Translations under genes and position numbers: made by a program
NCBI GenBank assembly: GCA_963785745.1
Contig: CAWAWR010000019.1
Span: 20,662-84,661 of the forward strand
Reading direction: 5' to 3'
DNA: 64,000 bases
DNA from: an uncultured Alphaproteobacteria bacterium
Lineage (GTDB): Bacteria > Pseudomonadota > Alphaproteobacteria > Rhizobiales > Xanthobacteraceae
Notes under the pieces: generated by a model
Told to the model about the DNA's origin: nothing
The model's database searches: none
What the model saw: the letters and a program-made list of their open reading frames with translations, nothing else
Shown: positions 8,299-48,771 of the stretch, piece by piece
How the letters are laid out: each line of letters begins with the position of its first letter
How positions within the stretch are numbered: position 1 is the first letter of the stretch

Positions 8299-8405
8299 GA
8301 CGCGTCCCTCCCTGTGGTGTCGCTTTTCTATTTTTCTGGATATTAGCGCATTGCCTGGGTCGGCGCAGTGCTGATAATGCGCTCCGACCAGCAAGGATTT
8401 CCGAC

Positions 8406-33001: not shown

Positions 33002-33071
33002 TGGCGAAAATGACAGGAATCGAACCTGCGCCTCCGGGTCTTCCCCGGCGCTCTCCATGAGCTACATCCTC
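33002..33071 (-). tRNA. tRNA-like sequence with encoded CCA and GGTTCGATT T-loop but short D and anticodon loops (anticodon unclear)
   Basis: Minus strand: GAGGATG-TA-GCTC..GAGC..CCGGG-GAAGA-CCCGG..GCAGG-TTCGATT-CCTGT-CATTTTC-G-CCA; acceptor pairs with two G.U; about 70 nt. Confidence 0.4.
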
Positions 33072-34647: not shown

Positions 34648-35805
34648 TCAATCCAGCGTGCGCCGGAAACGGGTGACCGCGATCGCCATGGCGAGCAACA
34701 TCAGCCCCGCGAGCGCGAACGTATCGAAATAGAGGTCTTGCAGCGACGCCCCCTTAAGCATGATCGAACGCACGATGCGCAGGTAGTGCGTCAGCGGCAG
34801 CGCCTCGCCGATCCACTGCGCCCACACCGGCATGCCGGCAAACGGGAACATGAAGCCCGAGAGCAGGATGTTCGGCAGGAAGAACATCAGCGACATCTGC
34901 ATCGCCTGCAGCTGGTTCTGCGCCAGGGTCGAGAACGTGTAGCCGATCGCGAGATTGGCCGTAATGAACAGCGTGCTCAGCATCGCCAGCAGCAGCAGAC
35001 TGCCGAGCAACGGCACGCCAAACAGCAGGATCCCGATACTGAGGATGAGCGCCGCCTGAATGAAGCCGACCATGATGTAGGGCACGATCTTGCCCAGCAT
35101 GATCTCCACCGGCGTGATCGGCATCGACAGCAGGCTTTCCATGGTGCCGCGCTCGATCTCGCGCGTGACCGACAGCGCGGTGAAGATCAGCATGGTCATG
35201 GTGAGGATGGTGCCGACCAGCCCCGGCACGATGTTGAGCGAGGTCTCACCGGCCGGATTGTAGCGGGCGTGGGTGCGGAATTCGAACGGCGACGTCGCGG
35301 CCTCGGGCACGCCGTGGTCGTAGCGCAAGGCCGTCTGCAAGACGCCATTGAGCGCGGCGATGGCCGAGCCCGACGCGATCGGGTCGGTCGCGTCGCTCGC
35401 CACCAGGATCGCCGGGCGGTCGCCGCGCCGCAAGTCGCGCTCGAAGTTGGCCGGTATCTCGATCGCGAACAGCACCTTGCCGGACGCGAGCAGCCGATCG
35501 AATTCCGCTTCGCTGCGCACCAAATGCGTGACCTTGAAGTACTGGGTGTTCTCCAGCGCGCGCAGGATCGAGCGCCCGACGTCGCTGCTTTCCTGCAGCA
35601 GCACCGCGGTCGGCAGATGGCGCGGATTGGTGTTGATCGCGTAGCCGAACAGCAGGAGTTGGATCAGCGGGATCATGATGATCATCGCGAACGACACGCG
35701 GTCGCGCTTGAGCTGGATGAACTCCTTCACCAGCATCGCCCAGGTGCGCCGCCAGAACTCGCCGCGCCGGGACAACCTTGCAGACGGGCTCTGCATCACG
35801 GTCAT
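34648..35805 (-). CDS. ABC-2 type transporter permease
   Basis: 385 aa; N-terminal TM, large periplasmic loop, then 5 C-terminal TM (YhhJ/YbhR-like architecture). Confidence 0.75.
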   Translation of the reverse strand: MTVMQSPSARLSRRGEFWRRTWAMLVKEFIQLKRDRVSFAMIIMIPLIQLLLFGYAINTNPRHLPTAVLLQESSDVGRSILRALENTQYFKVTHLVRSEAEFDRLLASGKVLFAIEIPANFERDLRRGDRPAILVASDATDPIASGSAIAALNGVLQTALRYDHGVPEAATSPFEFRTHARYNPAGETSLNIVPGLVGTILTMTMLIFTALSVTREIERGTMESLLSMPITPVEIMLGKIVPYIMVGFIQAALILSIGILLFGVPLLGSLLLLAMLSTLFITANLAIGYTFSTLAQNQLQAMQMSLMFFLPNILLSGFMFPFAGMPVWAQWIGEALPLTHYLRIVRSIMLKGASLQDLYFDTFALAGLMLLAMAIAVTRFRRTLD

Positions 35806-36743
35806 TGGAAATTGTCCTGCGCCCGGCTCATCAGGTCGATGAACACGTCTTCGAGGGTCGCATCGGAGCGCGCCCAGGTGAGATCGGGGCGTTCGCGATA
35901 GGGCGCGATCGCGGCATCAAGCGCCGCCTGATCGCGTCCGGAGACATGCAGGCTCGACCCGAACGGCGCCGCCATGTCGACGCCCGGGCGATCCGCAAGC
36001 TCGTCGCCGAGCTTGGTCAGGATCTGTGTATCGGGCGCGCTCACGGTGTAGGTGACGAGATGCGCCTGCGCGATCACCTCCGGCACGGTGCCGTGCGCCA
36101 GCAGCACGCCGTAGGCGATGTACGCGATCTCGTGACAGCGCTCGGCCTCGTCCATGTAATGGGTCGAGACCAGCACGGTGAGCCCGAGCGCCGCGAGCGC
36201 ATGGATCTCGTTCCAGAATTCGCGGCGCGCCTTCGGGTCGACGCCGGCAGTCGGCTCGTCGAGCAGCAGAAGCTGCGGGTTCGGCAGGGTACAGGCGCCG
36301 AGCGCCAGGCGCTGTTTCCAGCCGCCGGACAATTCGCCGGCGAGTTGCTCCTCGCGACCGGTGAGGCCAAGCCGCTCGATCATCACGCGCGCCGCCGCGA
36401 CCGGCTTTTCGAGCCCGTAGAGCCGCGCGACGAATTCAAGATTCTCGCGCACCGAGAGGTCCTGATACAGGCTGAAGCGCTGCGTCATGTACCCGACGTG
36501 ACGCTTGATCTCGTCCGCCTGGGTCCTGATGTTGTAGCCGAGGCAGGTCCCCTCGCCTTCGTCCGGCGTCAGCAGCCCGGTCAGCATCCGGATCGTAGTG
36601 GTCTTGCCGGAACCGTTGGGACCGAGAAAACCGTAGATCGTGCCGCGCTTCACCTGCATCGACAGGTCGCGCACGACCTTGCGATTGCCGAACGACTTCG
36701 ACAGCCCGTGCACATCGATGGCGATGTCGGACGCCGGGATCAT
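35802..36743 (-). CDS. ABC transporter ATP-binding protein
   Basis: Start MIPASDIAIDVHGLSKSFG; Walker A GPNGSGKTT, signature LSGGWKQRL, Walker B LLLLDE; ATGA overlap with the upstream HlyD stop. Confidence 0.85.
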   Translation of the reverse strand: MIPASDIAIDVHGLSKSFGNRKVVRDLSMQVKRGTIYGFLGPNGSGKTTTIRMLTGLLTPDEGEGTCLGYNIRTQADEIKRHVGYMTQRFSLYQDLSVRENLEFVARLYGLEKPVAAARVMIERLGLTGREEQLAGELSGGWKQRLALGACTLPNPQLLLLDEPTAGVDPKARREFWNEIHALAALGLTVLVSTHYMDEAERCHEIAYIAYGVLLAHGTVPEVIAQAHLVTYTVSAPDTQILTKLGDELADRPGVDMAAPFGSSLHVSGRDQAALDAAIAPYRERPDLTWARSDATLEDVFIDLMSRAQDNFQ

Positions 36744-37519
36744 TTTGGCCGCTCCTTGGAGCGATCCTTGGGCGCGAGCGTCACGGTGACCGGCTGCCCG
36801 ACCCGCAGCTTTTCGGGGGTCGCCGGTAGGGCCTCCACCATGAAGACGAGTTTGTTGCGCTCTTCCAGGCTGTAGATGACCGGCGGCGTGAATTCGGCGG
36901 TACGGGCGATGAAGCTGACGCGGGCGGTCAGGTCGCCGGGGCAACCGTCGCATTGGATATTGATGGTGTCGTCGAGCGCGATCGTCGGCAGCATCGCCTC
37001 GCTCACGAAGAAGCGCACCTTCATGTTGCCGGGCGGCAATATCGCCACCACCGGCCGCCCCGCGGGAACCAGCTCCCCGACCCGGAAATAGATCTGCTGC
37101 ACCGTGCCGTCCGCCGGGCTGAACGCCTTGCGCCGCGCCAGCTTGGTCTGCGCCGAATTGAGCCGTGCCTGCGTGGAGCGCAGCGCGGACTCGGCTTCGT
37201 CGTATGACTTCTGCGTGCCGGCTGCGGACTTCAGCAGGGCGACCGCGCGATTGAAGGCCTGCTTGGCGTTCTCGACCGCGGCCTCGCGCTCCGCGACCTC
37301 GGCGCGCTGCAGATCGTCGTCGAGCGTGAAGAGCAATGTCTTCGGCTCGACCCGATCGCCCTCGCGCACCGGCTGCTTCTCGATCCGGCCGGTCTCGTCG
37401 GGGCTGACGAAGATCAAGTTCGCCTCGATCCAGCCCTGATAGGCCTGATCCGAATTCTTGGCACAGGCGGCAAGGACGATGAGGCACGCCAGAGATGCAC
37501 GCATTGCGAGGCGGATCAT
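36740..37519 (-). CDS. HlyD-family membrane-fusion/secretion protein
   Basis: 259 aa; N-terminal anchor, coiled-coil, beta-barrel C-terminus typical of HlyD/EmrA-like proteins. Confidence 0.75.
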   Translation of the reverse strand: MIRLAMRASLACLIVLAACAKNSDQAYQGWIEANLIFVSPDETGRIEKQPVREGDRVEPKTLLFTLDDDLQRAEVAEREAAVENAKQAFNRAVALLKSAAGTQKSYDEAESALRSTQARLNSAQTKLARRKAFSPADGTVQQIYFRVGELVPAGRPVVAILPPGNMKVRFFVSEAMLPTIALDDTINIQCDGCPGDLTARVSFIARTAEFTPPVIYSLEERNKLVFMVEALPATPEKLRVGQPVTVTLAPKDRSKERPK

Positions 37520-38205
37520 GACGACGACCTTTCACCGAACAGAATATCCAAATGGGCGCGCATGAGCTCGCGGATGTCGAGCGGCGCGAACCGGTCGAAC
37601 ATTCCGTTCCAGACCAGCGCGACGAGCGCCGGCGCGACCAGAAGCTGCGGAAAACGCGCGAGCGCGTCGCTCGACAGTTCGCCGCGCGCGGCGGCGCGGC
37701 TCATGATGGCGCGCAGCGCTGCCGTCACGCGCTCGATCACCTCGTGATAGTAGAACTCGGCGAGCTTCGGAAACCGCGCGCCCTCGGTGATGACCAGCCG
37801 GATCACGTCCTTGCGACGGGTGCCGAAAATCTCGCGCACGAACAAATCGGCGATGGTTTCCGCGATGACGCGGGCCGGAAGGTCGGCAATCTGCGCGGTC
37901 TCGATGGTGCCGACCATCGGACTGAGCGATGCGCGCACGAGCTCCTGGAACAGGCTCTCCTTGTCGCGGAAGTAGAGGTAGATCGTCCCCTTGGCGACGC
38001 CGGCGCGGCGGGCGACGTCGTCGAGCCGCGTCGCCGCAAAGCCCGAAGCGGCGAACTCTTCGAGCGCGGCGGCGAGGATCGCGTCGCGCCGCTCGGCCTG
38101 GCGGACCGCCCGGACGTTGCGAACCGGCGCCGGCGCGGAGCGGCGGGAGGAAGGCGCCTCCCCTTTCATGCGTTTTGCGGCCTGCTTTCGAGCCATTTGC
38201 GTCAT
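37516..38205 (-). CDS. TetR/AcrR-family transcriptional regulator
   Basis: 229 aa; HTH ..FAATRLDDVARRAGVAKGTIYLYFRDKESLF.. Confidence 0.8.
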   Translation of the reverse strand: MTQMARKQAAKRMKGEAPSSRRSAPAPVRNVRAVRQAERRDAILAAALEEFAASGFAATRLDDVARRAGVAKGTIYLYFRDKESLFQELVRASLSPMVGTIETAQIADLPARVIAETIADLFVREIFGTRRKDVIRLVITEGARFPKLAEFYYHEVIERVTAALRAIMSRAAARGELSSDALARFPQLLVAPALVALVWNGMFDRFAPLDIRELMRAHLDILFGERSSS

Positions 38206-38233: not shown

Positions 38234-38677
38234 ATATAGTGCCACTGCTTCTGTTGCAAGAGCGGCCAAAAGGTTCAATCGCCCAATGCGCAGCAGTTCC
38301 CTCGTCCCGAAAGCCGAGGGCACCCTTTCGCGGACCAGTGACGCAGGTCCACAGGTGCACTTGCGCGCCGAAGACGCGCGTGAACGCGCTTCTGCGAGGC
38401 GCCTTGCGTCTCGGCGGAGACGCTCGCCTCTCGGCGCTCCACCTCGGCTCGGTGTTGAGCAATTGATCTTTAGATCGAATTGCCCCTGTTGCTCGATGAG
38501 CATCGCCATAACCCCATTGAAGGAGGCATCAGGCGTGCCGCGATGCGTGGCGCGTTCTCGCCGGTCGAAGCGCCGGCGTTGATGGCACCGACAGCGACCG
38601 GCCAGAGGGTCGAAGTCAGCGGGAACCGGCTATGACCGCCGGGCGTTCTTGTTGCAGTCCCTAAAGGGAGATATCCC

Positions 38678-38974
38678 ATGCGGCAAACACTAACTCGCGG
38701 CCTCGTCCTGGTCCCGCTGCTGATCGGGTCGCCGGTCGTCGCTCAGGTTACGCCCAACCAAGTACCAGAACCTACCGACGGCAGGTCACTCGGCATGCCG
38801 CATCACCAGCAGCAGGCAGACGGCGCCATGAATACGCCGTCGGGGCGCGCCGGTACGGACCAGCCGGGTGTGCACGCACCAACCCAAGATGTGCCCGTAT
38901 TTAAAAACGGAGTGTTCGACGTTCCGGGTGGCGCACGGATATCTGGCAGTGCTCCGCCGTCGCGACCGCCGTGA
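38678..38974 (+). CDS. small secreted protein (signal peptide; Pro/Gln-rich), unknown function
   Basis: MRQTLTRGLVLVPLLIGSPVVAQV..; SD gggagatatccc. Confidence 0.45.
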   Translation: MRQTLTRGLVLVPLLIGSPVVAQVTPNQVPEPTDGRSLGMPHHQQQADGAMNTPSGRAGTDQPGVHAPTQDVPVFKNGVFDVPGGARISGSAPPSRPP

Positions 38975-39062
38975 CAGTCACGACGGGTGCTGCACAGGCG
39001 ATCCGGGCCTTCAGGGCTCACGCACGACGTTGCCTGATCGCTCGTCGCGTCACGCTCTATGC

Positions 39063-39257
39063 TTATCGACCTGAAAGCCAATTCCGGATTGCACGGCCCC
39101 CAAGCCAAACAAGGATGCCCCAGCCGACGATTACAAATCCCAAAGGATCCTTGTTCGGCTGAGCGAAATAGAGCCAGACGACGATCCCAGCAGCGATCAG
39201 GATCACAGCGATCCATGACGCGATCCAATACAACAGATAACCGAGGCGCGGTACCAT
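39063..39257 (-). CDS. small two-TM membrane protein, unknown function
   Basis: MVPRLGYLLYWIASWIAVILIAAGIVVWLYFAQPNKDPLGFVIVGWGILVWLGG. Confidence 0.4.
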   Translation of the reverse strand: MVPRLGYLLYWIASWIAVILIAAGIVVWLYFAQPNKDPLGFVIVGWGILVWLGGRAIRNWLSGR

Positions 39258-39860
39258 TTAGCGAATTGCCTTAGAGCGGCCGGCAAGTGCTCAGAACGGT
39301 GACTGCTCGATTTTGCCGATGACATACTCCCCAATCAACCGCGTTGTTCTATGGGCAAACTGAAAACCCTAGCGCGCCGAAATGGCGCGCCGTCGCGCCG
39401 GATTTTTGCCGGCCCCCTGCAAGTTTTCTTACAGCCCCTGGCCCAGACTTGTTCTGGGCCGAACGGGGGGCGATGATTGGCTACTCAGGCTTCCATTTGA
39501 TCAGAGGGACGGGCTTCAATGGTCGACATCATGACGCTACGGAACGAAACTTCTGAAATGCTGAAAACGGCCACGAGTTACGGCATTGACAAGGAGCATG
39601 GGCAAGCGACAGTCCACGCTGTCAATGCGCAGAACCAAATTCTGATTGCACTCTTGGAAGAAATTCAGGGCCTTCGTGCCGATCTCAAAAACAGATCTAC
39701 ATAGCGATGTTGTACCTACGAAAGACCTATTTTAGGCCAACGCCCGATGGTATTGGTCAGCCAACGGGTCCATTCACTTTCGACGATATTTTACGCGAGG
39801 CATTTACGTCCATCCGATACTGTTGGCGCGTCTAGGTAACTGCGGCTCGGAGATAGGACC

Positions 39861-40136
39861 ATGGGCAAGGCGGCGGATAACGAGCGCCTAAGACTGCGAG
39901 CCATGTTCTTCAACACCTTGGCAGCGGCGTGCGTTGTAACAGGCCTGTTCGTACCGTATTTCGTTATGTTGACAGCGTGGGGACGAATGGTCGCTACGTT
40001 CGAATCTCTCATTACCGGCGATTGGGTGCGCCTACACGGTTTAGTGGTGGGCCTGTTCGCTACCGCGGTGGCTCTCCTTCTCGGTTTTCTATTCCGGCGC
40101 AGAGCCGACAAGATCGCACAATCCATTCGCGACTAG
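39861..40136 (+). CDS. small membrane protein (2-3 TM), unknown function
   Basis: SD ggagatagg; MGKAADNERLRLRAMFFNTLAAACVVTGLFVPYFVML... Confidence 0.45.
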   Translation: MGKAADNERLRLRAMFFNTLAAACVVTGLFVPYFVMLTAWGRMVATFESLITGDWVRLHGLVVGLFATAVALLLGFLFRRRADKIAQSIRD

Positions 40137-40414
40137 TGCTTCAACGCCTGCCTTCGGCAAGTCCGCTCGCATTCGAATCGCCTCGCAGGCTTGGCCGCTC
40201 CTAAGTATACGTAAGTATCGGGAACTCCCACCTTTAACAAATTGATCCCTAAGGACCTGAATGCGAGGTTCAACGGCGATATGCTCGCGCTCTATCCGAG
40301 CTGCGTCGTCCTCGCCTTCGTGGCGAGCCGCCTCCTTCGTCACATCAATACCCAAGTAGGCGCGGGTTGAGACGACCATGGGCAGAGACATTTTGGCGTT
40401 GTTGGAGGAATCAA

Positions 40415-41557
40415 ATGAAGCGGCGAGACTTCAATCGCGCGGCTCTCGGACTTGGCCTAAGCCCATTACTGGCAAATCGCAGCCTTGCTCAATGGTACGA
40501 AGGACCATCACCGCCGGCTTCCGCGCCGCCGAAAAAATTCAATGTCGTCATCAAGAATTCTCCACGGACTTACAACCAAGTAAATGTACCGCGCAAGTAC
40601 GGCTCTGGCCGTCGGTTTAGCATCTATTGGACCTGGAGTTATCCCTGGGAGGCCAACCGCAATGTGGCCGAAATGGACAATCGCTTTTCCACGATGACAG
40701 AGGTGCGCCGAGTGGCGTGGCCCAATTATGAAACGCCGGAATTCTCCGAGAAGGCGTTCCTGCAAGGAATTGATGGTGTACTCGAGCTATTCCACCTTTC
40801 GACGATACGATTCCAAAATATCGTCGGCGAAGTGACCGGGCAGCCCGTCGTCGTCTACCAGCGAATCGATCAGGCTGGACAGCGGCTGCCGATCGAGGAG
40901 CGGATGCTGGCCGACACCGACACGTTGATGGTGTTCGGGCTAGATCACATGGTCACCGAGCAAGAGGCTTCCGCAGAAGAGATAGAAGCGATCAAGCAGT
41001 TTTTAACGCGTGAGGGCACCTGTCTGCTCCTCAGCCCCCATCACGACGTAGGTGCGTCACGGGACCCGAAACGGCTGCAAATGGAGTATGCCCATCACGG
41101 CGATCCGCTGGTGCCTCGCCAGCAGCGATTCGGCCTTTACACGCGCAGCCTCATGAAAGGTCTCGGGGTGCCGGTGGAGAACCGGTTTGGTCTTCGCCCG
41201 GCCGTCATCAAGGGCACAAACCAGCTTGCCCCGCTCACGGTCATGCGCGATATCGACACGCCTCGTTGGCTGGAGAACGTGACAACTTTCAATTTTCATC
41301 AGCACCTGCCGCACTACGCATTGACCACGGAGGACACAAAATCCATTCGCTTGCTGGCTCGGCAGCCGATCGACTTGACGAACCCGCATCCATTCATTGA
41401 AGCCGGAAACACCGAATTCAACATGTTCCTCTGGATGCCGCCGGCCGGCACACGCGCCGGCCACATCCTGCTGGCGGACCTGACCATCTTTACCACTTTG
41501 TTCGGCGGCTCCGAGAGTCTCGACAATTTTTGGTACAACCTCGCAACAAAAGGCTAG
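40415..41557 (+). CDS. Tat-signal secreted protein of unknown function (380 aa)
   Basis: SD ggaggaatcaa then ATG; MKRRDFNRAALGLGLSPLLANRSLA twin-arginine signal; no family recognised. Confidence 0.6.
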   Translation: MKRRDFNRAALGLGLSPLLANRSLAQWYEGPSPPASAPPKKFNVVIKNSPRTYNQVNVPRKYGSGRRFSIYWTWSYPWEANRNVAEMDNRFSTMTEVRRVAWPNYETPEFSEKAFLQGIDGVLELFHLSTIRFQNIVGEVTGQPVVVYQRIDQAGQRLPIEERMLADTDTLMVFGLDHMVTEQEASAEEIEAIKQFLTREGTCLLLSPHHDVGASRDPKRLQMEYAHHGDPLVPRQQRFGLYTRSLMKGLGVPVENRFGLRPAVIKGTNQLAPLTVMRDIDTPRWLENVTTFNFHQHLPHYALTTEDTKSIRLLARQPIDLTNPHPFIEAGNTEFNMFLWMPPAGTRAGHILLADLTIFTTLFGGSESLDNFWYNLATKG

Positions 41558-41683
41558 GCCCTCATCGATTGGAACTCATCATGATCGAGACGGTCATTCA
41601 AACAGATGTAGCCAAGCACATGCAGTTCAGGGGCTAGTGCGGACTAGAACCAAGGACATTCCTAAGTACGGAAAGGACTCTTC

Positions 41684-42415
41684 ATGTCGAACGAACCGCT
41701 AGGAAACACAACTCGCCGGGGCTTCCTGGGCACGGCAACCGCTGTCACGGCACTTACGTTGACCACTCCGCCTGCCGCTGAGGCACAGAGTGGGATCAAG
41801 TCCACGGATGAAATCAAAATGGCGCAAGTGAATGCCCCTAACAGTCCGCCGGCGACAGCGGCCGCCACAAGCGACTGGACGAAGCCAGCAGCCATGGCAA
41901 TCCCGAAAGAGGGATACTTCAAACTTGAGCAAGGCCGTTATGGCCCGATCTTTCCAAGAACTCCTGCAAACTATGGCTTTACCGTCATTGCGAAAGTGAA
42001 GCCCGGAAGGGAAAACGCAATTCGTGACTACGGCAAAACGATTGAACAGGCAGTAAAGGACAGCCCGACGGTACTGGCGCCGCTGCGGCTTCATTATCTG
42101 CGTTGGGTCCTGTTCGATGTCGGTTCCGGCTTGCACTTCATGTATCAGGGCATCTTCGATACCGACTTTGATAAGTATCTCGAGGACGCTGTAGCCCTTT
42201 TCCTGGCGACGGGGATCACAACCGTGTTTGTGAATTTGGAAGGCTGGCCCGAAGACTGGAAGACAAACTCGCCGGCCGTGATCAAATTCTTTCGTGATCA
42301 CCAGAGGCCCAGCTTTCTGGAATACGGAGAATATCCGTATGTCACCGCAGACGAGGTGAAGAAAGCACTCAAAGTAAAAGGTGCGGTCTCCACCATGCTT
42401 GACCAGATGCAGTGA
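41684..42415 (+). CDS. Tat-signal secreted protein of unknown function (243 aa)
   Basis: MSNEPLGNTTRRGFLGTATAVTALTLTTPPAAEA twin-arginine signal; SD aaggac upstream. Confidence 0.6.
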   Translation: MSNEPLGNTTRRGFLGTATAVTALTLTTPPAAEAQSGIKSTDEIKMAQVNAPNSPPATAAATSDWTKPAAMAIPKEGYFKLEQGRYGPIFPRTPANYGFTVIAKVKPGRENAIRDYGKTIEQAVKDSPTVLAPLRLHYLRWVLFDVGSGLHFMYQGIFDTDFDKYLEDAVALFLATGITTVFVNLEGWPEDWKTNSPAVIKFFRDHQRPSFLEYGEYPYVTADEVKKALKVKGAVSTMLDQMQ

Positions 42416-42506
42416 CCCCGAAAGGTGCATAGGCAGGACCTGCGAAGCAAACGCGGCGACCAAGTACGCTGATGGTGGCGTAAGCGAAGCTGGGAGTAAC
42501 GATGAC

Positions 42507-43034
42507 ATGAAACGTCACGCCTTAAGCCGCTTCGCGTTCGGTATCGGTGTAAGTCTAACATTGGCAAATGCGGCGATCGCCCAGGAAGTCGCGCAACGAG
42601 AGCCCTTTGCGCCACCGCCATCAAAGAACGTAGTGTCAGACGATCCGATGTCGGCAGTGCGCAAGTACGTCAATGCCTTCAACAAAGGTGATACGGCCGA
42701 AATGGGGATGGCTTTCGCTGTCCCTGGCTCCATCCTTGACGGGATGGCTCCGCACGTGTGGCAGGGGCCAACGGCGACCCATGATTGGTACAGAGATGTT
42801 TTGGTTGAAGGCAAGCAACACGGTGCTTCGGATTATTTCATCACTCTGAATGAGCCATTGCACAACGATATAACCGGCGACAGTGCGTATGTGGTCATTC
42901 CCGCAACCATGAATTTTAAACTGCGCGGCAAGCAGATCACGCAATCCGGAGCCGTATTTACAGTGGCGCTGCGCAAGTCCGCCGAAGGGTGGCGGATAGC
43001 ATCATGGGCCTGGGCGAAAGGTACCCCTCGATAA
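42507..43034 (+). CDS. secreted NTF2-like/SnoaL-like (DUF4440-type) small protein
   Basis: MKRHALSRFAFGIGVSLTLANAAIAQE signal; ..VRKYVNAFNKGDTAEMGMAF..GWRIASWAWA typical NTF2-like fold. Confidence 0.55.
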   Translation: MKRHALSRFAFGIGVSLTLANAAIAQEVAQREPFAPPPSKNVVSDDPMSAVRKYVNAFNKGDTAEMGMAFAVPGSILDGMAPHVWQGPTATHDWYRDVLVEGKQHGASDYFITLNEPLHNDITGDSAYVVIPATMNFKLRGKQITQSGAVFTVALRKSAEGWRIASWAWAKGTPR

Positions 43035-43104
43035 ACTTGAAGAGGTCCTATGGTGAGATTGGTCATTCAGGCTGACCAGGCGGTGCGATCAGATGCCTTG
43101 ATCA

Positions 43105-44436
43105 TTGCGGCCACACGTCATGCTTGAGTTCGATGATATCCAGCACCTCGTCGTAACCCGTTTGCCCGCGCTCACGGGTCGGTACGAGTTCCTTTCGTTT
43201 CGGCAGGCTGCTCAAGGACGGGCTTGGCTCTCAGGGATGCTCGACAAGGTGGCGTCCGTTCAGGAGGCTAGGGATTCCATCGAACGAGAGCAAAGATGGG
43301 TGTCGATCGCCTTTACTTGGCAAGGACTTCGTGCACTCGGGGTGGACGAACAGGCACTGGCAACATTCCCGGCGGAATTTCGGCAGGGCATGGTCGCGCG
43401 CGCTGAAGTGCTTGGCGATACAGGCAGGAACCATCCCGATCGGTGGGTTGGCGGCCTCGCCAGTCCGAGACTGCACGCCATTGCCATTCTTTTCGCGCGC
43501 AATGCTACTGAGCGCCAGCGCGCCACGAAAGAACACCAGACTTTCTTGGAAAGAATTTCGGGAGTGGAAGTGATCTCATCATTGGATTTGGACGGTTTTC
43601 CGCCATTTGACTATGCGCACGAACATTTCGGTTATCGGGACCGGCTCTCTGAGCCACAAATCGAAGGAGCGGGAGTGGTGCCGACGCCCGGCTCGGGCGC
43701 GCCTGTAAAAGCGGGCGAGTTCATTCTCGGACATGTCGATGAGAGCGGTGAGCTGGTTCCGTTGCCGCAGCCGGAAATCCTCTCCCGAAATGGCACCTTC
43801 ATGGCTTATCGCAGATTGCAGGAGCACGTTGGCGCGTTCCGCGACTTTTTGCGACAGCATGGCGGACCAACAACCGAGGGTCAGGAGCTGATCGCCGCGA
43901 AGTTGATGGGGCGCTGGCGGAGTGGAGCTCCGCTCGTCCTGGCAGCAGAGAAGGACGATCCAGCACTTGCAGCCGATTACCAGCGCAACAACAACTTCAA
44001 CTACGCGCAAATGGACCCTCACGGGTATCGCGTTCCGCTGGGAGCGCATATCCGACGAATGAATCCTCGGGACACGGCGGTGAACATGCAGCGGCGAAGA
44101 ATGATTCGCCGGGGCGCGACCTACGGACCTCCTTTGCCAGAGGGTGCACCTGAGGATGGTGTTGATCGCGGCATTGCAGCTTTCGTTCTGTGTGCAAGCC
44201 TCGTGCGGCAATTTGAGTTTGCGCAGAACGTTTGGATCAATGACCCTAACTTTCACGAACTGGGCAACGAACGCGACCCATTGATTGGCAACCAGGACGG
44301 CACGTTCGACATGACAATTCCGAAGCGGCCGATCCGGAAAAAGATAACGGGCCTGCCGGCCTTCACCACGCTATTGGGAGGTGCTTATTTCTTCCTTCCG
44401 GGCATCAAGGCACTGCGATATCTAGCGGCCCTTTAG
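43105..44436 (+). CDS. Dyp-type peroxidase family protein (large, no signal peptide)
   Basis: 443 aa; ..FDYAHEHFGYRDRLSEPQIEGAG..GEFILGHVDESGE..HIRRMNPRD..GLPAFTTLLGGAYFFLPGIKAL matches the DyP heme-binding region; alternative start ATG 43120. Confidence 0.7.
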   Translation: MRPHVMLEFDDIQHLVVTRLPALTGRYEFLSFRQAAQGRAWLSGMLDKVASVQEARDSIEREQRWVSIAFTWQGLRALGVDEQALATFPAEFRQGMVARAEVLGDTGRNHPDRWVGGLASPRLHAIAILFARNATERQRATKEHQTFLERISGVEVISSLDLDGFPPFDYAHEHFGYRDRLSEPQIEGAGVVPTPGSGAPVKAGEFILGHVDESGELVPLPQPEILSRNGTFMAYRRLQEHVGAFRDFLRQHGGPTTEGQELIAAKLMGRWRSGAPLVLAAEKDDPALAADYQRNNNFNYAQMDPHGYRVPLGAHIRRMNPRDTAVNMQRRRMIRRGATYGPPLPEGAPEDGVDRGIAAFVLCASLVRQFEFAQNVWINDPNFHELGNERDPLIGNQDGTFDMTIPKRPIRKKITGLPAFTTLLGGAYFFLPGIKALRYLAAL

Positions 44437-44948
44437 AGATGTATTTTGGCTCTTACCTAGTCGGCACTGGCCAAGCCACCCATGTCCGCCAAACTCGTGC
44501 GCACCGTCCGCTCCATGGATGGAGCGGCTCTCGGCGGCGTATCTGGCCGGAAATATAGCGAAGCGCGTGTGCCGCGTTGCGCGACGCGTGACACCCGAAT
44601 GGCAGGGATATCTATCGAACGCGCCTATGCACAAAATTGATGTGTGACAGAAGGAAGACCAGGAATTGCCGAATGTCCGCTCGGGCCAGGAGCACACGCT
44701 CGCATTGGAATCACCGCCTTATAAACGGGTGGCAGAACAGTCAGTGGTGAAGCCAAAGCAGGGACGCGGAGGTAGACGCGGCCGCAACTCACAGGCCGGC
44801 CGAGGAACCTCTCTCCTAGGTGCTGATTTCCCTGACGGAAAATAAACATATCCACAACACACCGACACACCACGCCGGGGCAAAGATCGACACCTTTGTT
44901 CAGGACGTTCGACGACGTTCGGCGAACTGGGAAATCCGGAGTTGAGTC

Positions 44949-45260
44949 ATGTCCTATGATTGTTCGATTCAGTGGCGTGCGCGTGCTGAACAGATGCGGG
45001 CTCTCGCGGAAGAAACCAAGGGCGGAATATCCAAGCATGTGATGCACAGAATCGCAGACGACTATGACCGTCTCGCTCAAACGATCGAGCACCGGCCGAA
45101 CCGCTTTTTACCGATCCCCCCAGTCGTGCCTGCCGAAGTGAGACGATTCGCCCCCTGCAAGAATTCCTTCGGCGCAGCACCCGCGATCATCGATCTTGAA
45201 CTCCCCGGTTTCCTCAAGCGAGGGCCGGCGACGGCGGATGAGTTGGGGGCTTCGATATGA
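44949..45260 (+). CDS. hypothetical protein
   Basis: 103-aa ORF with ggag upstream; no family recognised. Confidence 0.3.
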   Translation: MSYDCSIQWRARAEQMRALAEETKGGISKHVMHRIADDYDRLAQTIEHRPNRFLPIPPVVPAEVRRFAPCKNSFGAAPAIIDLELPGFLKRGPATADELGASI

Positions 45261-45690
45261 CAACGCAACACGTGCGCGCGGAATCCGCGGATCAGTTGCA
45301 GCAGCCATCGCAAGGATTTCGACGACATCGCGGCGAGCATTTCTGCGCTTGAGAAAGCGATGCTGGAGCCGCCGGCGCGGGACCGCGAAGCGATCCACGA
45401 GCTCGGATGCAGGATCGTCGCTCAGGCGCTCAAGAGAAAATAGCGGCTCGGCACGCGGACGATGCGAAGCGTTAGGCGCTCGTTCAGTCTCCTTTATTGG
45501 GAATCCGGTGCTAGCGTAGCGAACGCAGGTAACGGGATGACGCCACTCCGTCCATGCTGATCATTGCTGCGCCCGACGTCGATATTATCGCGCGCTCCCG
45601 CCTTCCTTCTGTCACACCGTGCAGGTTTCTTGCAGCATCAGTCAGCCGCGCGGAAAATCCGGCTGGTCCCTGCGATTGAAGTCGGCGTGA

Positions 45691-46287
45691 GTGGAGGTGC
45701 CAGTGTATTCCTCGCAAGATCTGCCTCGGAGCAATGGGTATCACGAGCGGGATGTCGCGCGCGATCTGGATGCTGAACGCGAGTTGTCCTCCAGGCGTAG
45801 CGGGAGAGCCAGGCGAGGACGGCCGTCGATTGGCCGGCGCGTATTCCGTACCCTTTTCCGGTTTCTCTTTGCGGTTCTGGTCGGTGTCGCCGCCACGCTT
45901 GGCTGGCAATCCCATGGTGACGAAGCAAAGGAGATGGTCAGCGCATGGAATCCAGCCCTGGGCGAATTGTTACCCGGCTCGATGACGAAGTCGCCGGTCG
46001 CGGCTTCAACTGCATCTGGGCTAGTGCCGCAACTCGAACCCATGGCGCGCGATCTCGCCGTCGTGCGTCGCAGCCTCGAACAGCTCGCGGCCAAGCAAGA
46101 GCAGATAGCGCTCCAAGTCGCGACGCTGCAGACAGTTGACAAACCGTCATCCGCGGTTCCGTCCTGGGCGGCGCCGATCCTGCCGAACAGGGCTCCGCCA
46201 CCCGCGGCGAGGCCATCGGTGGCGCCCTCATCCTCATCGCCGCCGGCGCGACAACCTTTGGCCCTGGATCGCTTCGGCAGCCGGTAG
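45691..46287 (+). CDS. hypothetical membrane-anchored coiled-coil protein
   Basis: 198 aa; TM RTLFRFLFAVLVGVAATLGW; coiled-coil RSLEQLAAKQEQIALQVATLQ; Pro/Ser-rich tail. Confidence 0.4.
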   Translation: MEVPVYSSQDLPRSNGYHERDVARDLDAERELSSRRSGRARRGRPSIGRRVFRTLFRFLFAVLVGVAATLGWQSHGDEAKEMVSAWNPALGELLPGSMTKSPVAASTASGLVPQLEPMARDLAVVRRSLEQLAAKQEQIALQVATLQTVDKPSSAVPSWAAPILPNRAPPPAARPSVAPSSSSPPARQPLALDRFGSR

Positions 46288-46370
46288 CACGCGGACCGCC
46301 TCAGGGGCAAAAGCGGAAGGGCTCGCGCTCAGCAGCTACGGCTTGGGAGCAAGCCGCAGGAGAGAGCGCC

Positions 46371-47048
46371 TCAGCGCGGCTTCGGCCGGCTGTTCTTGCG
46401 CGGTCGCGGCTTTGCCAATTCGAGCCCGCAGGTCTTGTCCAGCCACGCTTTGACCGCCGGCCAGTACCGCCTGTCTCCCCATACTTTCTGCTTCTCCAGC
46501 AAGCCCGGATGATTGGCGTCGAAGTCCTGGAGGATGGCCTGCCCGAGTTCGTCCGGCACGCCGAGCCGGCGGATCAGCTCCGCTTCGGTGACAAACAGTG
46601 TGCGGGATTTTCCGGCTTGATCGACGAGAGCCTCAATGTCCTTCAGCAAGTCATGCAGCGTTCGCGCCGTGGCGCTATTGTTTTCAATCGCCGGCGTTCT
46701 CAATTTCGGGGTTTCTTCGACAATGAACCGTGTTGCTTCACGGATCCTGTCGATGTCGGCGGCTTGAGGGCCGCCATGGGTCAGGTAGTCGTCCACTTCG
46801 GACCACTTCCACATCAATTCGCCACCACGCTTGCGCGGCTGCGGCAAAATTCCTTGCGCGACCCAATTATTCACCGTGTCCGGAGAACATGAGATGTGCC
46901 TGCACAACGTCCTCATGTCCTGCCAAGGCGGGATGGGCCCGCTCTGAACTGGCGGCGTAATGATCGGTCCAATGTCGTCAGAACCCGGGTCACTCATGCG
47001 GCAGCAGTCTGGCTTGCACCTCGCCGGGTCGCAATGGCCGAAAGCCAA
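46371..47048 (-). CDS. AlpA/Xis-like helix-turn-helix DNA-binding protein with extended C-terminal domain
   Basis: MRTLCRHISCSPDTVNNWVAQGILPQPRKRGGELMWKWSEVDDYL resembles AlpA-family HTH; start codon uncertain (46923/46997/47048). Confidence 0.4.
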   Translation of the reverse strand: MAFGHCDPARCKPDCCRMSDPGSDDIGPIITPPVQSGPIPPWQDMRTLCRHISCSPDTVNNWVAQGILPQPRKRGGELMWKWSEVDDYLTHGGPQAADIDRIREATRFIVEETPKLRTPAIENNSATARTLHDLLKDIEALVDQAGKSRTLFVTEAELIRRLGVPDELGQAILQDFDANHPGLLEKQKVWGDRRYWPAVKAWLDKTCGLELAKPRPRKNSRPKPR

Positions 47049-47314
47049 AGTCTCAGCCCCGCTTCATTTTCTGTTCCATTGAGGGCTTCCGCAGGTCGTT
47101 TTCATGCGGTTGCGGTCCCCGGTGCCGTGGCAGGCGAGCGGGCCGTGGTCTTGAGCCGACCGGCGGCTATGACAACGGTATCGCGCAGGCGCCATGGACC
47201 GTCAGCATCTCACCGGAAGGGGTCGCCCGGAAACATCCTCGGGAATTTTTGCGGCATAATCGCCGCCAACGCGGAGCGTGCCGATGCGGCCGGCACCGTC
47301 AATCGCAAATGTCG

Positions 47315-47416
47315 TTACTGGAGATACCAGACGAGAAACGGGCTGACGACGGTCACCAGAGCAAGCGACGAAACGCCCACCCAGATCGCCGCTGCGAAAC
47401 CTTCGCGAATTTGCAT
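47315..47416 (-). CDS. possible 33-aa single-TM small protein
   Basis: MQIREGFAAAIWVGVSSLALVTVVSPFLVWYLQ with SD gggag 7 nt upstream. Confidence 0.25.
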   Translation of the reverse strand: MQIREGFAAAIWVGVSSLALVTVVSPFLVWYLQ

Positions 47417-47622
47417 GGGACGCTCCCGCCAGAAACCACGAATTGCCGACTGCTGCGAAGCGTATAGCGCAACGGGCCGCAAAGTTTGTGGCGCAAATGG
47501 TCAACTCGCCAATGATTTTCCTGTAGAGACAGAAATGACACACCGTGACCGCAAATCAACACGCGGAACAATAGTCATGATCGGCGCACGCACATTGCCG
47601 CGTATCGCCTTTGTCCAGTGCG

Positions 47623-48771
47623 CTATTGGATGCTGTCCAGGATCACCTCGCGAAGCACGCGGGTCGGCGGGACCCACTGATCGTCGGCAAGGTAGTTTCC
47701 GGCGGTGATGGCGACGGCGAGCTTGAGCCCCGGTATCAGGAACAGCCGCTGGCCGCCTTCGCCGTATCCGATCCAGGCGCGTTCAAGATGTCGTGGTGCC
47801 CATCCCAGCGGCTTGCCGAATGAAATGTCGGCGACGAACCACTGATAGCCGAAGCGGCGCACTTCATCGACGCTCACGATGGGCGACGTGCAGCGCTCAA
47901 GCCATTGCGACGAGATCACGCGACGGCCTTCCGACATGCCACCGCGCAACATCATCGTGCCGATCCGGGCCAGATCGCGCGGCGTCATGCGTAACCCCGA
48001 TGCGGCAATGGGCTCGCCGTCCCGGCCGGTATGCCATTCGGTCGGACCGAGCCCGAGCGGATCGAACAAGGTTTCGCGTGCGAAAGCATGCAGAGACTTG
48101 CCGGTCGCCTTCGCAATGATCCGCGCCAGCAGCGCGGTCGCGCCGCCGGAGTAAGTAAACCTGAGGCCGGGCTCCCGCACGACGCGCCGCTCCAGGACAT
48201 AGCGGTAGCGGTCGGGCGCCAAATCCATCGCGATCTCACTGTTTTTCGGGTCGGAATAGGGAAGGCTCGTCTCATCCCAGTCCGTTCCCATGGTCATGGA
48301 GAGTGCGTGATGGATGGTGAGCCGCTCGCGTCCCTCGTGCGCGGCCAAGTCGGCATATTCGGGGAAAGCGGCGAACAGCGGCGCTTCCGGCGGCGGTACC
48401 TTTCCCTGCTCGAGCGCAATGCCATACAGCAGTGCAACGACGCCTTTCGATAGCGAGCGCATGTCATGCAGCGTGTCGGGCTTGAACGTCACCTTCCCCA
48501 GCGGACGGCCGCGCGCGTTGTCTTCGCCCTCAAAATAGCGCTCAAGCACCAGCCGGTTGTCGCGCACCACGACGACGCCATGCAGATTCCACACGCGTTT
48601 GCCGGCGATGGCTTTGTCCAACCGCGCTTCAAGGTCGGGGGCGAAGCCGGCCTCGGCGGGGCGGATCGGCAGCAACGGTGCGGCGCACGACGGCCGCGCC
48701 TGCATCACGAATATGGCCCCTGCGCCGAGCATGGCTTGGCGGCGGCTTATCACCGATCGGGTATATGTCAT
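47623..48771 (-). CDS. serine hydrolase (beta-lactamase/PBP-like family)
   Basis: ORF 47623..48966; likely start MTYTRSVISRRQAMLGAGAIFVMQA; SxxK-type motif RSLSKGVVALL. Confidence 0.7.
   Translation of the reverse strand: MTYTRSVISRRQAMLGAGAIFVMQARPSCAAPLLPIRPAEAGFAPDLEARLDKAIAGKRVWNLHGVVVVRDNRLVLERYFEGEDNARGRPLGKVTFKPDTLHDMRSLSKGVVALLYGIALEQGKVPPPEAPLFAAFPEYADLAAHEGRERLTIHHALSMTMGTDWDETSLPYSDPKNSEIAMDLAPDRYRYVLERRVVREPGLRFTYSGGATALLARIIAKATGKSLHAFARETLFDPLGLGPTEWHTGRDGEPIAASGLRMTPRDLARIGTMMLRGGMSEGRRVISSQWLERCTSPIVSVDEVRRFGYQWFVADISFGKPLGWAPRHLERAWIGYGEGGQRLFLIPGLKLAVAITAGNYLADDQWVPPTRVLREVILDSIQ

Follow-up and report, generated by a model that had tools for sequence, protein, structure and literature searches.

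Two bacterial multi-gene operons that include a DyP-type peroxidase, EfeUOB / YcdNOB and Sco-ECuC-DtpA, encode products that act together outside the cytoplasm, and export of the DyP is Tat-dependent in both (PMC9719856, PMC4736821). E. coli PaoABC is a documented ternary Tat hitchhiker (PMC4273604). The D. radiodurans DyP (DR_A0145; PDB 8re2/8re3), the closest solved relative of the DyP studied here and alike in its catalytic residues, has a haem that is six-coordinate and low-spin and shows no activity at neutral pH; which event activates it is a question raised by its authors (PMC10820274). Within the window (the whole 64,000-nt stretch of DNA that was analysed) we observed a low-GC block in which a self-contained cassette, X-Y-(SnoaL)-DyP, is the working part (Table 1). 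Three genes form its functional core: those for a 380-aa protein (X), a 243-aa protein (Y) and a 438-aa DyP peroxidase of class V. We found no description of the X-Y-DyP cassette in the searched literature.

Table 1. Features of the low-GC block, in window coordinates.
Feature	Position	Strand	Basis or remark
98-aa ORF	38678..38974	+	hydrophobic signal-like N-terminus MRQTLTRGLVLVPLLIGSPVVAQ; GC3 0.66; no Pfam match
64-aa hypothetical small membrane protein, two hydrophobic helices	39063..39257	-	translation
terminator-like G+C-rich hairpin followed by T run	39383..39400	+	left edge of low-GC core
91-aa membrane protein	39861..40136	+	no family match
X, 380 aa	40415..41557	+	starts MKRRDFNR
Y, 243 aa	41684..42415	+	Tat signal, TIGR01409 match
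SnoaL/NTF2-like protein, 175 aa	42507..43034	+	SnoaL_3 E 6.8e-6; N-terminal signal
class V (C/D-type) DyP-type haem peroxidase, 438 aa, without signal peptide	43120..44436	+	DyP_N, D. radiodurans DyP match
non-coding gap, 512 nt	44437..44948		without RNA family or convincing ORF
103-aa hypothetical ORF, island cargo	44949..45260	+	no family match
198-aa hypothetical ORF, one hydrophobic helix, Pro/Ala-rich tail	45691..46287	+	no family
225-aa HTH protein, excisionase/AlpA-like	46371..47048	-	HTH_17 and phrog_66

GC was 0.543-0.582 in 1-kb windows from 39001 to 45000, compared to 0.649-0.659 in the left-hand neighbouring windows and 0.61-0.66 in the right-hand ones. The 300-nt GC profile fell at ~38.95 kb and returned at ~45.2-45.9 kb, and the lowest-GC 6-kb window of the 64 kb started at 39000 (0.561; mean 0.635, sd 0.026). 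GC3 was 0.60-0.68 in the block genes versus 0.85-0.92 in five left-flank genes and 0.73-0.86 on the right. The initial annotation had described a GC-poor block of ~9 kb. Sliding GC and codon third positions, which both differ strongly from the flanks, bear out the low GC. The block is real, but its extent had to be reduced: strong deviation covers 39.0-45.2 kb, with only mild deviation from 45.2 to 47.6 kb, and the functional module is three to four genes at 40.4-44.4 kb. The genes are otherwise as annotated, except that the membrane protein at 39063-39257 lies on the minus strand and not, as had been stated, on the plus strand. The long non-coding gap noted at ~44440-44950 is real; we observed no Rfam match in it, and its ORFs are only antisense and of low GC3.

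The 98-aa ORF may mark the island's left edge; its GC3 compares with at least 0.85 in the left flank. It has no relatives in other cassette loci and is absent from the recurrent clusters. The 91-aa membrane protein is missing from all 80 related loci and is island cargo outside the conserved cassette. Terminator-like hairpins with T runs do not exceed the number expected by chance in this region.

Horizontal acquisition of the block, as suggested from the initial inspection, is supported by several agreeing observations. Alphaproteobacterial cassettes have a GC of ~0.56-0.58 irrespective of the host flank (0.56-0.65), their neighbourhoods differ among related genomes, with adjoining transposases, and copies occur on plasmids of Nostoc and Streptomyces. 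In addition, the right end of the block carries an excisionase-like gene, the sole mobility-related gene of the block. This is the opposite-strand gene annotated as AlpA-like, an assignment that agrees with its matches to HTH_17 (E 4.9e-4, below cut-off) and to PHROG phrog_66, 'excisionase and transcriptional regulator' (E 1.1e-5). Across lineages, cassette GC follows that of the host (0.39 to 0.66), which marks the cassettes as old residents and not recent copies.

The cassette is conserved well beyond this island. Y and DyP were adjacent in 80/80 genome loci from at least seven phyla, and X adjoined them wherever the contig reached; X and Y thus always sit beside DyP in these soil bacteria. 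The trio also occurs on metagenome contigs, and a conserved, tightly packed three-gene cluster is present in at least 592 species-level genomes. Alphaproteobacteria have the gene order X-Y-DyP; in the other groups it is Y-DyP-X. The median gap from the Y stop to the DyP start is 32 nt (0 or negative in 9/67), and the DyP and X reading frames often overlap. This adjacency and close packing give strong comparative-genomic support to the earlier suggestion of a partnership between the peroxidase and the unknown Tat proteins. Within the window the intergenic gaps of the cassette are 85-126 nt, and its operon status is inferred from spacing only, as scans for promoters and terminators added no information. 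Core identity over 11 lineages averages 77.5% (Y), 67% (X) and 64% (DyP), and purifying selection on the cluster is very strong. Natural fusions of DyP to Y or to X were not observed; apparent cases were rejected as frameshift read-throughs or tandem Y copies.

X and Y had been annotated as Tat proteins of no recognisable family. Neither matched a Pfam or NCBIfam family, although X has thousands of relatives, and Y has 7114; both represent new families. X consists of a twin-arginine-type signal (residues 1-25, MKRRDFNRAALGLGLSPLLANRSLA), a variable linker of ~20 aa and a conserved core of ~330 aa. The signal was not recognised by Tat HMMs and is assigned from its KRRDF motif, hydrophobic stretch and basic residue ahead of the cleavage site. 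Ninety X residues are invariant across 72 sequences. The core is predicted to adopt a GATase1/ThuA-like fold, in which a cluster of invariant His and Asp residues (H178, H209, H210, D211, H227, H228, D230, H325) would lie at the C-terminal edge of the sheet, although their clustering in space is unconfirmed. Compared to GATase1-like ThuA / GIFT-domain proteins, X has PHHDVG at the nucleophile elbow of the amidotransferases and a unique Trp/Arg-rich invariant insert, and we found no sequence-family membership.

Y consists of a Tat signal (residues 1-34, TTRRGFLG ... AEA), a variable linker of ~29 aa and a 180-aa core from D64. Its TIGR01409 score is 17.5 (cut-off 16.7), and Pfam Tat-signal models match 23-27 clade members. 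Structure prediction suggests a dimeric alpha+beta barrel, with TcmI, AbxO, ABM monooxygenases and olivetolic acid cyclase as best structural neighbours. Y differs from the ABM / Dabb / TcmI superfamily in extra elements at both ends, an invariant N-terminal segment and C-terminal helices, and again no sequence-family membership was found. Residues 72-119 of X and 64-99 of Y, the latter being the N-terminal core segment, are the most invariant segments; both have pLDDT <50 in the monomer models and are predicted to be unstructured. A distant form, Y2 (29% identical), lies immediately upstream of the D. radiodurans, Sphingomonas and Massilia DyPs.

The DyP matches the D. radiodurans DyP (8re2) over its full length (E 1.5e-101). 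Its ORF (43105-44436) opens at TTG 43105, whereas homologues begin at an ATG with MLEFDDIQH, which makes ATG 43120 the most likely start on sequence grounds. The 443 aa first assigned to this signal-less DyP thus become 438; the absence of a signal peptide stands. Upstream extension of the ORF is impossible, and no form of the cassette has a DyP signal peptide. In 69 cassette DyPs, D179, H315 and R335/R336 do not vary, and by alignment the haem ligand and the catalytic Asp and Arg are kept. The label "heme-related" holds in that sense only.

The SnoaL gene is an optional fourth member of the cassette. Relatives with 45-66% identity sit beside the cassette in ~8 loci, and the cluster reaches 12 loci once more distant copies are counted; the gene lies between Y and DyP in loci L014, L018, L059, L074, L079 and L083. 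Its product was correctly annotated as a secreted NTF2-like protein, and its signal is Sec-looking in the window. Alphaproteobacterial copies carry a signal, and actinobacterial copies do not.

X, Y and SnoaL bear signal peptides in alphaproteobacterial cassettes alone. Outside this clade we observed no signal peptide on any cassette protein: Nocardia Y starts MTTGDGDWSKPAAMA and Nocardia X starts MSTSTPARTYNQ, both without a signal, and N-termini are likewise signal-free in Acidobacteriota, Bacteroidota, Actinomycetota and others. As judged from these N-termini, the signals are a recent addition to an otherwise cytoplasmic system. Because only the alphaproteobacterial partners carry signals, the signal-less DyP probably leaves the cytoplasm attached to X/Y, although export itself is inferred. 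Identity within the alphaproteobacterial clade is 75% for DyP, 79% for X and 78% for Y. DyP is as conserved here as its partners, which suggests that its link to them has not loosened.

We propose that a partner-dependent DyP system has moved to the periplasm in this lineage with the DyP riding via Tat, and we give this reading about an even chance. X, Y and DyP would act together as one obligate partner-dependent peroxidase system, for which there are no interaction data. Y may dock on DyP via its invariant N-terminal segment, unstructured in the isolated model. X would supply a site lined with His and Asp, probably metal-binding, for preparing, delivering or receiving the substrate in an H2O2-driven haem oxidation. 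In most phyla the reaction would be cytoplasmic. Here, haem-loaded DyP would be assembled in the cytoplasm and then carried by Tat bound to signal-bearing Y and/or X; by this hitchhiker route, known from PaoABC and NiFe hydrogenase 2, the whole system would end up in the periplasm. Against co-export, both X and Y carry Tat signals although one complex needs only one; together with the Sec-looking SnoaL signal, this fits separate export followed by periplasmic assembly, or no assembly. The predicted folds of X and Y, which answer the call for structure prediction, are generic and indicate no substrate.

The two independent Tat signals and the Sec-like SnoaL signal also fit a pathway rather than a complex, in which X, Y and SnoaL function in the periplasm as separate enzymes or binding proteins, the DyP is cytoplasmic or exported otherwise, and only a diffusible small molecule links them. 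The lack of fusions also speaks for this, and signal-less Pseudomonas DyPs are reported to exit cells by unconventional routes (PMC12398576). We nevertheless consider a pathway unlikely. The partners are all cytoplasmic together in every other phylum, a split across the membrane with unchanged operon and DyP constraint is less parsimonious, and contacts between the proteins are favoured by the invariant segments that lack structure in the monomer models.

Two further readings concern the substrate. Metal oxidation or handling would follow the logic of EfeUOB (Fe) or Sco-ECuC-DtpA (Cu): the X His/Asp residues would hold the metal, the acidic motif of Y (D159, D161, D163, E167, D168) would bind cations, and DyP would oxidise bound Fe, Mn or Cu. 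DyP2 of Amycolatopsis, a related class V DyP, oxidises Mn, at strand ends X carries eight His plus Asp that are invariant or nearly so, and invariant Asp residues are common to Y1 and Y2. Moreover, the sole two bacterial DyP operons of known physiological role oxidise protein-bound metal (PMC9719856). This reading remains quite unlikely, as no permease, chaperone or metal transporter recurs beside the cassette, no metal-binding family was matched, the system is cytoplasmic in most phyla and the His residues of X are not confirmed to cluster. Equally improbable to us is tailoring or detoxification of a hydrophobic aromatic, quinone or lipid-peroxide, in which Y would be an ABM/TcmI-like oxygenase or cyclase that needs no cofactor, SnoaL would act as a cyclase or isomerase and DyP would be the oxidant. 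The structural neighbours of Y and the recurrent SnoaL-like gene point this way, as does an SthA-like flavoprotein gene beside the cassette in 10 loci. Sister cassettes, which pair Y2-DyP with a catalase-related haem protein, also lie near genes for an oleate-hydratase-family protein (MCRA), a thioesterase and a 3-hydroxyacyl-CoA dehydrogenase.

Among known systems, encapsulin-DyP (class P, B-type) likewise encodes a DyP with a dedicated protein partner, but its DyP class differs from ours, and no encapsulin gene or recurrent shell protein was found near the cassette. NiFe hydrogenase 2 (HybO/HybC/HybA) and DmsAB are Tat hitchhiker complexes, the former, like the cassette, with two signal-bearing subunits and one passenger. 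They and PaoABC (PMC4273604) resemble the cassette in that a signal-less cofactor subunit is encoded beside signal-bearing partners. None of the three has a sequence relationship to the cassette, for which co-export is inferred only. The EfeUOB / YcdNOB and Sco-ECuC-DtpA DyPs are class I (A-type) with their own Tat signal, whereas the window DyP is class V, has none and scores 18.9 bits against TIGR01412 (cut-off 428). X and Y are unrelated to the partners in those operons, and no EfeU, EfeO, Sco or ECuC homologue was found with the cassette. At the D. radiodurans locus, a gene of the Y family (243 aa, core identity 29%) lies directly before the DyP gene with a gap of 1 nt, and we found no study of its product in the searched literature. 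In place of X, that locus has as third partner a DR_A0146-type haem protein related to catalase, all the proteins are cytoplasmic, and GXXDG carries Met at its fifth position, compared to Arg in the window DyP. In our preferred reading of a partner-dependent peroxidase, the Y-DyP pair would be the part held in common with this Deinococcus-type sister cassette.

The lower-GC block first recognised by eye was borne out by base composition at three scales. GC content was 0.543–0.582 in 1-kb windows across 39001–45000, compared to 0.61–0.66 in the flanks, and the lowest 6-kb window of the whole 64 kb started at 39000 (GC 0.561; mean 0.635, sd 0.026). In a 300-nt profile, GC fell at ~38.95 kb and recovered at 45.2–45.9 kb. 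The low-GC stretch is therefore real, but its strongly deviant core stops near 45.2 kb, short of the 47.6 kb proposed. Third-position GC (GC3) was 0.60–0.68 in the block genes, 0.73–0.86 in the right-flank genes and 0.85–0.92 in five left-flank genes (MFS, ABC-2, ABC ATPase, HlyD-like and TetR). Both flanks carry ordinary chromosomal genes. The left flank has TetR and an ABC export operon, and the right flank encodes a beta-lactamase-family hydrolase, DUF4189, LysR and TctC. Every gene listed in the initial annotation was present, including the DyP-type peroxidase, with two corrections: one small membrane protein lies on the minus strand, and the peroxidase most likely starts at ATG 43120, because every homologue begins MLE-DDIQH, which makes it 438 aa rather than 443 aa. 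A promoter and terminator scan for co-transcription gave signals at or below chance level and was uninformative. We found no RNA elements in the block or its 512-nt gap.

Positions of the genes and features discussed here
Sequence	Feature	Position	Strand	Length
Window	three consecutive ORFs	9194-11711	-	142, 214, 332 aa
Window	region matched by the close relative L093	31.7-52.4 kb		20.7 kb
Window	tRNA (Leu)	33002-33071		
Window	single ORF in the left flank	35802-37535	-	577 aa
Window	small membrane protein	39063-39257	-	
Window	X	40415-41557	+	380 aa
Window	Y	41684-42415	+	243 aa
Window	SnoaL/NTF2-like protein	42507-43034	+	175 aa
Window	DyP-type peroxidase	43120-44436	+	438 aa
Window	beta-lactamase-family serine hydrolase	47623-48771	-	
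L032	SthA-like gene	7579-8994		
L060	SthA-like gene	7575-8996		
L050	SnoaL-like gene with X signal	4938-5426		
L087 (D. radiodurans NZ_OV024759.1)	sister cassette	5788-9021		
L088 (Nostoc sp. ATCC 53789 plasmid pNsp_c)	cassette	5992-8955		

Three other features of the window were observed. A second patch of lower GC3 (0.59–0.68) covers three consecutive ORFs without a Pfam match. The serine hydrolase that flanks the block has a twin-arginine-signal-like N-terminus (MTYTRSVISRRQAMLGAGAIFV); its longest ORF (447 aa from GTG 48966) is probably too long, and the sister-contig call is 382 aa. The single left-flank ORF corresponds to two sister-contig genes, an ABC ATPase (313 aa) and an HlyD-like protein (321 aa), and may reflect an indel in the window or an overlapping-frame artefact.

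Y is encoded in at least 592 genomes (one genome per species scanned). We mapped the window proteins onto the best 80 of these loci and observed that Y and DyP were adjacent in all 80, with X adjacent wherever the contig reached far enough. This strongly supports the initial proposal that the unknown Tat proteins partner the peroxidase. The gene order was X-Y-DyP in alphaproteobacterial (Xanthobacteraceae-like) genomes. It was Y-DyP-X in Acidobacteriota, Actinomycetota (Nocardia, Mycobacterium, Mycolicibacterium), Bacteroidota (Chitinophagaceae), Eisenbacteria, Rokuibacteriota, Thermoanaerobaculia and Oligoflexales, and also on Nostoc plasmids; Streptomyces plasmids carry Y. The median distance from the Y stop to the DyP start was 32 nt, with 9 of 67 gaps at 0 or negative, and DyP/X overlap was frequent. 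ORF clustering of the 80 best loci revealed no other neighbour that recurs universally, so the functional unit is three genes plus an optional fourth. SnoaL-like genes formed a 12-locus cluster among these 80, and copies 45–66% identical to that of the window adjoin the cassette in ~8 loci, usually between Y and DyP.

Mean identity over 11 lineages, drawn from seven or more phyla, was 77.5% for the 180-aa Y core (minimum 69%), 64% for DyP and 67% for X, and 90 X residues were invariant in 72 sequences. In most lineages the cassette GC tracks that of the host (0.39–0.47 in Chitinophagaceae, 0.62–0.65 in Actinomycetota), which argues against recent copying: the proteins were held constant while synonymous sites drifted. 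These data show that the three-gene unit is self-contained, tightly packed and under very strong constraint. The candidates for a Rosetta-stone fusion between Y and either DyP or X proved to be frameshift read-throughs or tandem Y copies. Separately, an SthA-like flavoprotein gene of the FAD/NAD(P) disulfide-oxidoreductase family (NF003585, 404.7 bits; cut-off 465) adjoins the cassette in 10 of the 80 best loci, from several phyla. In two of these ten (L032, L060) it lies between Y and X, with a divergent DyP (42–44% identical) further downstream.

Homology places DyP in a known family, as class V (C/D type). It aligned end to end with the solved D. radiodurans enzyme DrDyP (8re2; residues 6–442, E = 1.5e-101) and with fungal DyPs; B. 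adusta DyP (2d3q) matched at E = 3.7e-42. Pfam DyP_N matched at 36.5 bits (cut-off 27.5) and TIGR01413 at 94.9 bits, slightly below its cut-off of 100.5. The catalytic residues of solved DyPs aligned with proximal H315, distal D179 and R335/R336, all invariant in 69 of 69 cassette DyPs. The GXXDG motif reads G-Y-R-D-R, with the Asp retained and the last Gly replaced by Arg, as it is in 61 of the 69. DrDyP, which binds haem, has Met at this position (PMC10820274); because it also deviates there, a strict GXXDG does not define membership. The peroxidase catalytic residues are intact, and haem binding and activity are inferred.

Apart from a Tat-signal model on Y, neither Y nor X had a sequence match in Pfam, NCBIfam or the PDB. 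Among 8000 candidates scored for each, relatives formed 7114 (Y) and 5618 (X) clusters at 90% identity, all named 'hypothetical' and without a precomputed Pfam domain. We scanned 92–94 members singly at E up to 5 and found no domain family for X or Y; the sole matches, weak noise on X aside, were Tat-signal models on alphaproteobacterial Y. A DUF7492 match on X (best E = 0.0043 over 40 residues) was treated as noise. Clustering at 50% identity left only a few full-length Y representatives, together with fragments.

The structural model of Y has a well-predicted core (pLDDT 80–94) with a beta-alpha-beta-beta-alpha ferredoxin-like unit and extra C-terminal helices. Foldseek was consistent with this fold, but its best match did not fall below E = 0.016, and the Y core gave no Pfam or NCBIfam match to ABM, Dabb, EthD or TcmI-like families (92 members, E up to 5). 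The model would place Y in the dimeric alpha+beta-barrel (ABM/Dabb) superfamily at the fold level only. The possibility that Y is a diverged half-domain of DyP was rejected (hhalign probability 0.7% against DyP ferredoxin-like domains). Tandem double Y genes occur in five cassettes (L011, L030, L033, L042 and L070), and two proteins (P0405, P0411) contain two units of a distant Y relative, Y2, in one chain. These arrangements are consistent with a protein that functions as a dimer and is able to become a heterodimer.

The X model adopts a flavodoxin-like GATase1 fold (class I glutamine amidotransferase-like/ThuA-like). At the amidotransferase nucleophile-elbow position, the loop after strand 203–208 is an invariant PHHDVG, not GxCxG. 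C203 is at least 95% conserved but sits at the strand start, and a Cys-His-Glu triad geometry was not established. Invariant His and Asp residues gather at the strand ends (PHHDVG, GLDH178, H227-H228-x-D230, H295/H297/H300 and H325). This dense set lies at the usual active-site edge of the fold and suggests a site for catalysis or metal binding, not a scaffolding role. The most invariant stretches of both models had pLDDT below 50 (Y 64–99, X 72–119). Being invariant yet poorly predicted, they are read as putative interface segments that fold only on a partner. The 175-aa protein matched SnoaL_3 modestly, above the cut-off.

Y begins with TTRRGFLG, followed by TATAVTALTLT and AEA. TIGR01409 matched it at 17.5 (cut-off 16.7), Pfam TAT_signal and UCR_Fe-S_N matched 23 and 27 Y members of the alphaproteobacterial clade, and R11, R12, F14, L15 and G16 are invariant in that clade. 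Y is thus predicted to have a canonical Tat signal. X begins with MKRRDFNR, followed by AALGLGLSPLLA and N-R-SLA, and this N-terminus is conserved in the clade. No Tat HMM matched the putative twin-arginine signal of X; MKRRDFNR resembles QRRDFLK of E. coli CueO. We observed no signal in any non-alphaproteobacterial locus examined, diderm Acidobacteriota and Bacteroidota included. In Nocardia niwae, for example, Y (186 aa) starts with MTTGDGDWSKPAAMA and X with MSTSTPARTYNQ, both without a signal. In alphaproteobacterial Y, the Tat signal (invariant RR-x-FLG, hydrophobic stretch, AEA) is joined to a variable linker of ~30 residues; in alphaproteobacterial X, MKRRDFNR, a hydrophobic stretch and SLA precede a linker of ~20 residues. 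Judged from the sequences alone, the signals are a clade-specific gain by alphaproteobacterial X and Y. The SnoaL-like protein likewise has a signal in alphaproteobacterial loci and none in Actinomycetota. In one related locus (L050), a SnoaL-like gene opens with X's own signal peptide (MKRRDFNRIALG..., MKRRDFNR), which suggests that the signal module was copied between cassette genes.

Y2 belongs to a sister cassette of the Deinococcus type. It is ~29% identical to Y, has 2763 relatives, and shares H137, R140 and an Asp-rich motif with Y. In D. radiodurans (1-nt gap), Sphingomonas and Massilia, the gene directly before the class V DyP encodes Y2. The D. radiodurans locus (L087) encodes the Y homologue (243 aa), DrDyP and the catalase-like DR_A0146; Sphingomonas and Massilia have the same three-gene set with the catalase-like gene first. 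This third gene encodes a catalase-related haem protein of the DR_A0146 type (47% identity between Deinococcus and Sphingomonas), not X, and a relationship between the two was rejected for lack of similarity. DR_A0146 is reported to lack catalase activity (PMC6300522). Because Y2-DyP is retained while the third gene differs, the invariant core of both systems is Y plus DyP. The haem of DrDyP is six-coordinate and low-spin, the enzyme shows no activity at neutral pH, and its authors ask what activates it (PMC10820274). We found no mention of its upstream partner in the literature searched, coverage of which was incomplete, and the D. radiodurans Y2 partner appears to be unstudied. The cassette offers a concrete lead for this puzzle: a conserved partner gene directly upstream.

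The horizontal acquisition inferred in the initial annotation gained support from deviant GC and GC3, changing neighbourhoods, transposases and plasmids, although the block's own mobility signature is thin. Alphaproteobacterial cassettes have a GC of 0.55–0.61 (mostly 0.56–0.58) regardless of flank GC (0.56–0.65). They are indistinguishable from their surroundings in hosts of ~0.56–0.58 and deviate by 0.06–0.08 in hosts of 0.63–0.65 (the window, L007, L008, L011, L013 and L015). This pattern suggests that the donor was a lineage of the same clade with ~57% GC. Window Y is 85% identical to an acidobacterial Y and 78% to another alphaproteobacterial Y, whereas X shows the opposite pattern, which indicates exchange between cassettes. 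On related contigs the trio lies in unrelated neighbourhoods or beside IS110/IS30-type transposases and a resolvase. The sole mobility gene in the block is an excisionase-like HTH gene, and no integrase was found there. The direct repeats anticipated at ~38.6 and ~47.6 kb did not materialise: a search for flanking direct or inverted repeats returned only short chance-level matches. A tRNA integration site was rejected, as the only tRNA (Leu) lies 6 kb left of the block. The expected absence from sister strains could not be demonstrated. The only close relative found by Y look-up (L093, ENA ERZ25039591 contig_71351; 99.36% identical, 118 mismatches, 12 gaps) has the same block and flanks. No empty site was found: an exact look-up of the TetR protein returned nothing, and of the 80 loci retrieved from metagenomes with the right-flank beta-lactamase-family protein, none was syntenic. 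Overall, we regard the conserved cassette and its horizontal acquisition as near certain.

Two of these loci merit separate description. In L093 the DyP frame is broken after ~residue 285, and either a genuine pseudogene or an indel introduced by long-read sequencing could explain this. On the Nostoc plasmid pNsp_c (L088), the cassette has a GC of 0.56 and the surrounding plasmid DNA one of 0.42. IS1 fragments immediately precede the cassette and Tn7-like TnsA genes lie close by; a cyanobacterial plasmid has clearly received it by recent transfer. Y is also present on another plasmid of this strain.

We propose that X, Y and DyP would act as one partner-dependent peroxidase system, in which Y would be bound to DyP and X would supply the His/Asp site, probably with a metal (metal binding is inferred). 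In this lineage, haem-loaded DyP would be exported via Tat while bound to Y and/or X. In NiFe hydrogenase 2, two subunits bear signals and one rides along. PaoABC is a further precedent for Tat hitchhiking (PMC4273604). The main rival is that X, Y and the SnoaL-like protein are exported separately, and DyP is left behind or leaves by another route. DyP has a signal in no locus, and its ORF in the window cannot be extended upstream. The gene arrangement of a hitchhiker is present, a signal-less cofactor subunit encoded with signal-bearing partners; a pre-export complex, with DyP export dependent on a partner's signal, is inferred. Between the window and a related locus (L012), identity is 75% for DyP, 79% for X and 78% for Y; DyP is about as conserved within the clade as X and Y, which argues that the functional link has not been relaxed. 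We consider an X-Y-DyP complex likely and the chances of hitchhiking export about even. The mechanism as a whole, partner dependence together with Tat hitchhiking of DyP, we regard as evenly balanced.

We put forward more tentatively, and with real doubt, the wider hypothesis that X, Y and class V DyP are obligate subunits of a heteromeric peroxidase, of a kind so far undescribed. Its partners would activate or feed a resting (six-coordinate) haem enzyme, and in Alphaproteobacteria the whole complex would have moved to the periplasm via Tat signals on the partners only. If true, hitchhiking would be a third DyP export route beside an own Tat signal and encapsulin. As to the chemistry of the cassette, metal oxidation like that of EfeUOB or DtpA would suit a metal site in X, which is itself only modelled. 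An ABM/SnoaL-like tailoring or detoxifying reaction on a lipid peroxide, a quinone or an aromatic compound would suit the predicted fold of Y and the SnoaL-like gene, of which the first holds at the fold level only and the second is optional. Sequence cannot decide between the two.

Described operon contexts of DyPs are EfeUOB (iron), Sco-ECuC-DtpA (copper) and encapsulin, outside which little is known of the physiological role or substrate of bacterial DyPs (PMC9719856). Bacterial DyPs are reported to be exported by their own Tat signal, by encapsulin and, as found recently for a Pseudomonas DypB, by T6SS/OMV; lignin-degradation research has yet to settle how signal-less DyPs exit the cell (PMC12398576). 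In the literature searched, which leaves out most subscription journals, we found no description of the cassette, of its Deinococcus neighbours or of a DyP Tat hitchhiker. Searches of the block for anti-phage defence systems gave no matches, nor did those for EfeUOB and encapsulin. EfeUOB comprises the EfeU permease, EfeO and a class I DyP that bears a Tat signal of its own, none of which is in the block or related loci; the window DyP lacks a signal and scored 18.9 with TIGR01412 (cut-off 428). For encapsulin, the block had no shell-protein match, and no further neighbour recurred in the 80 best loci. What is new is a DyP system in which both partner families are uncharacterised and exceptionally conserved, neither having a Pfam or NCBIfam model, together with a lineage-specific move to the periplasm, which is inferred. 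Few uncharacterised accessory proteins of soil bacteria are as conserved as X and Y. The cytoplasmic forms of most phyla and the signal-bearing forms of Alphaproteobacteria constitute a natural experiment, in which complex formation and Tat hitchhiking are directly testable. The cassette matches none of the three described operon contexts and represents a fourth, very widespread one, with at least 592 species-level genomes and thousands of metagenomic relatives.
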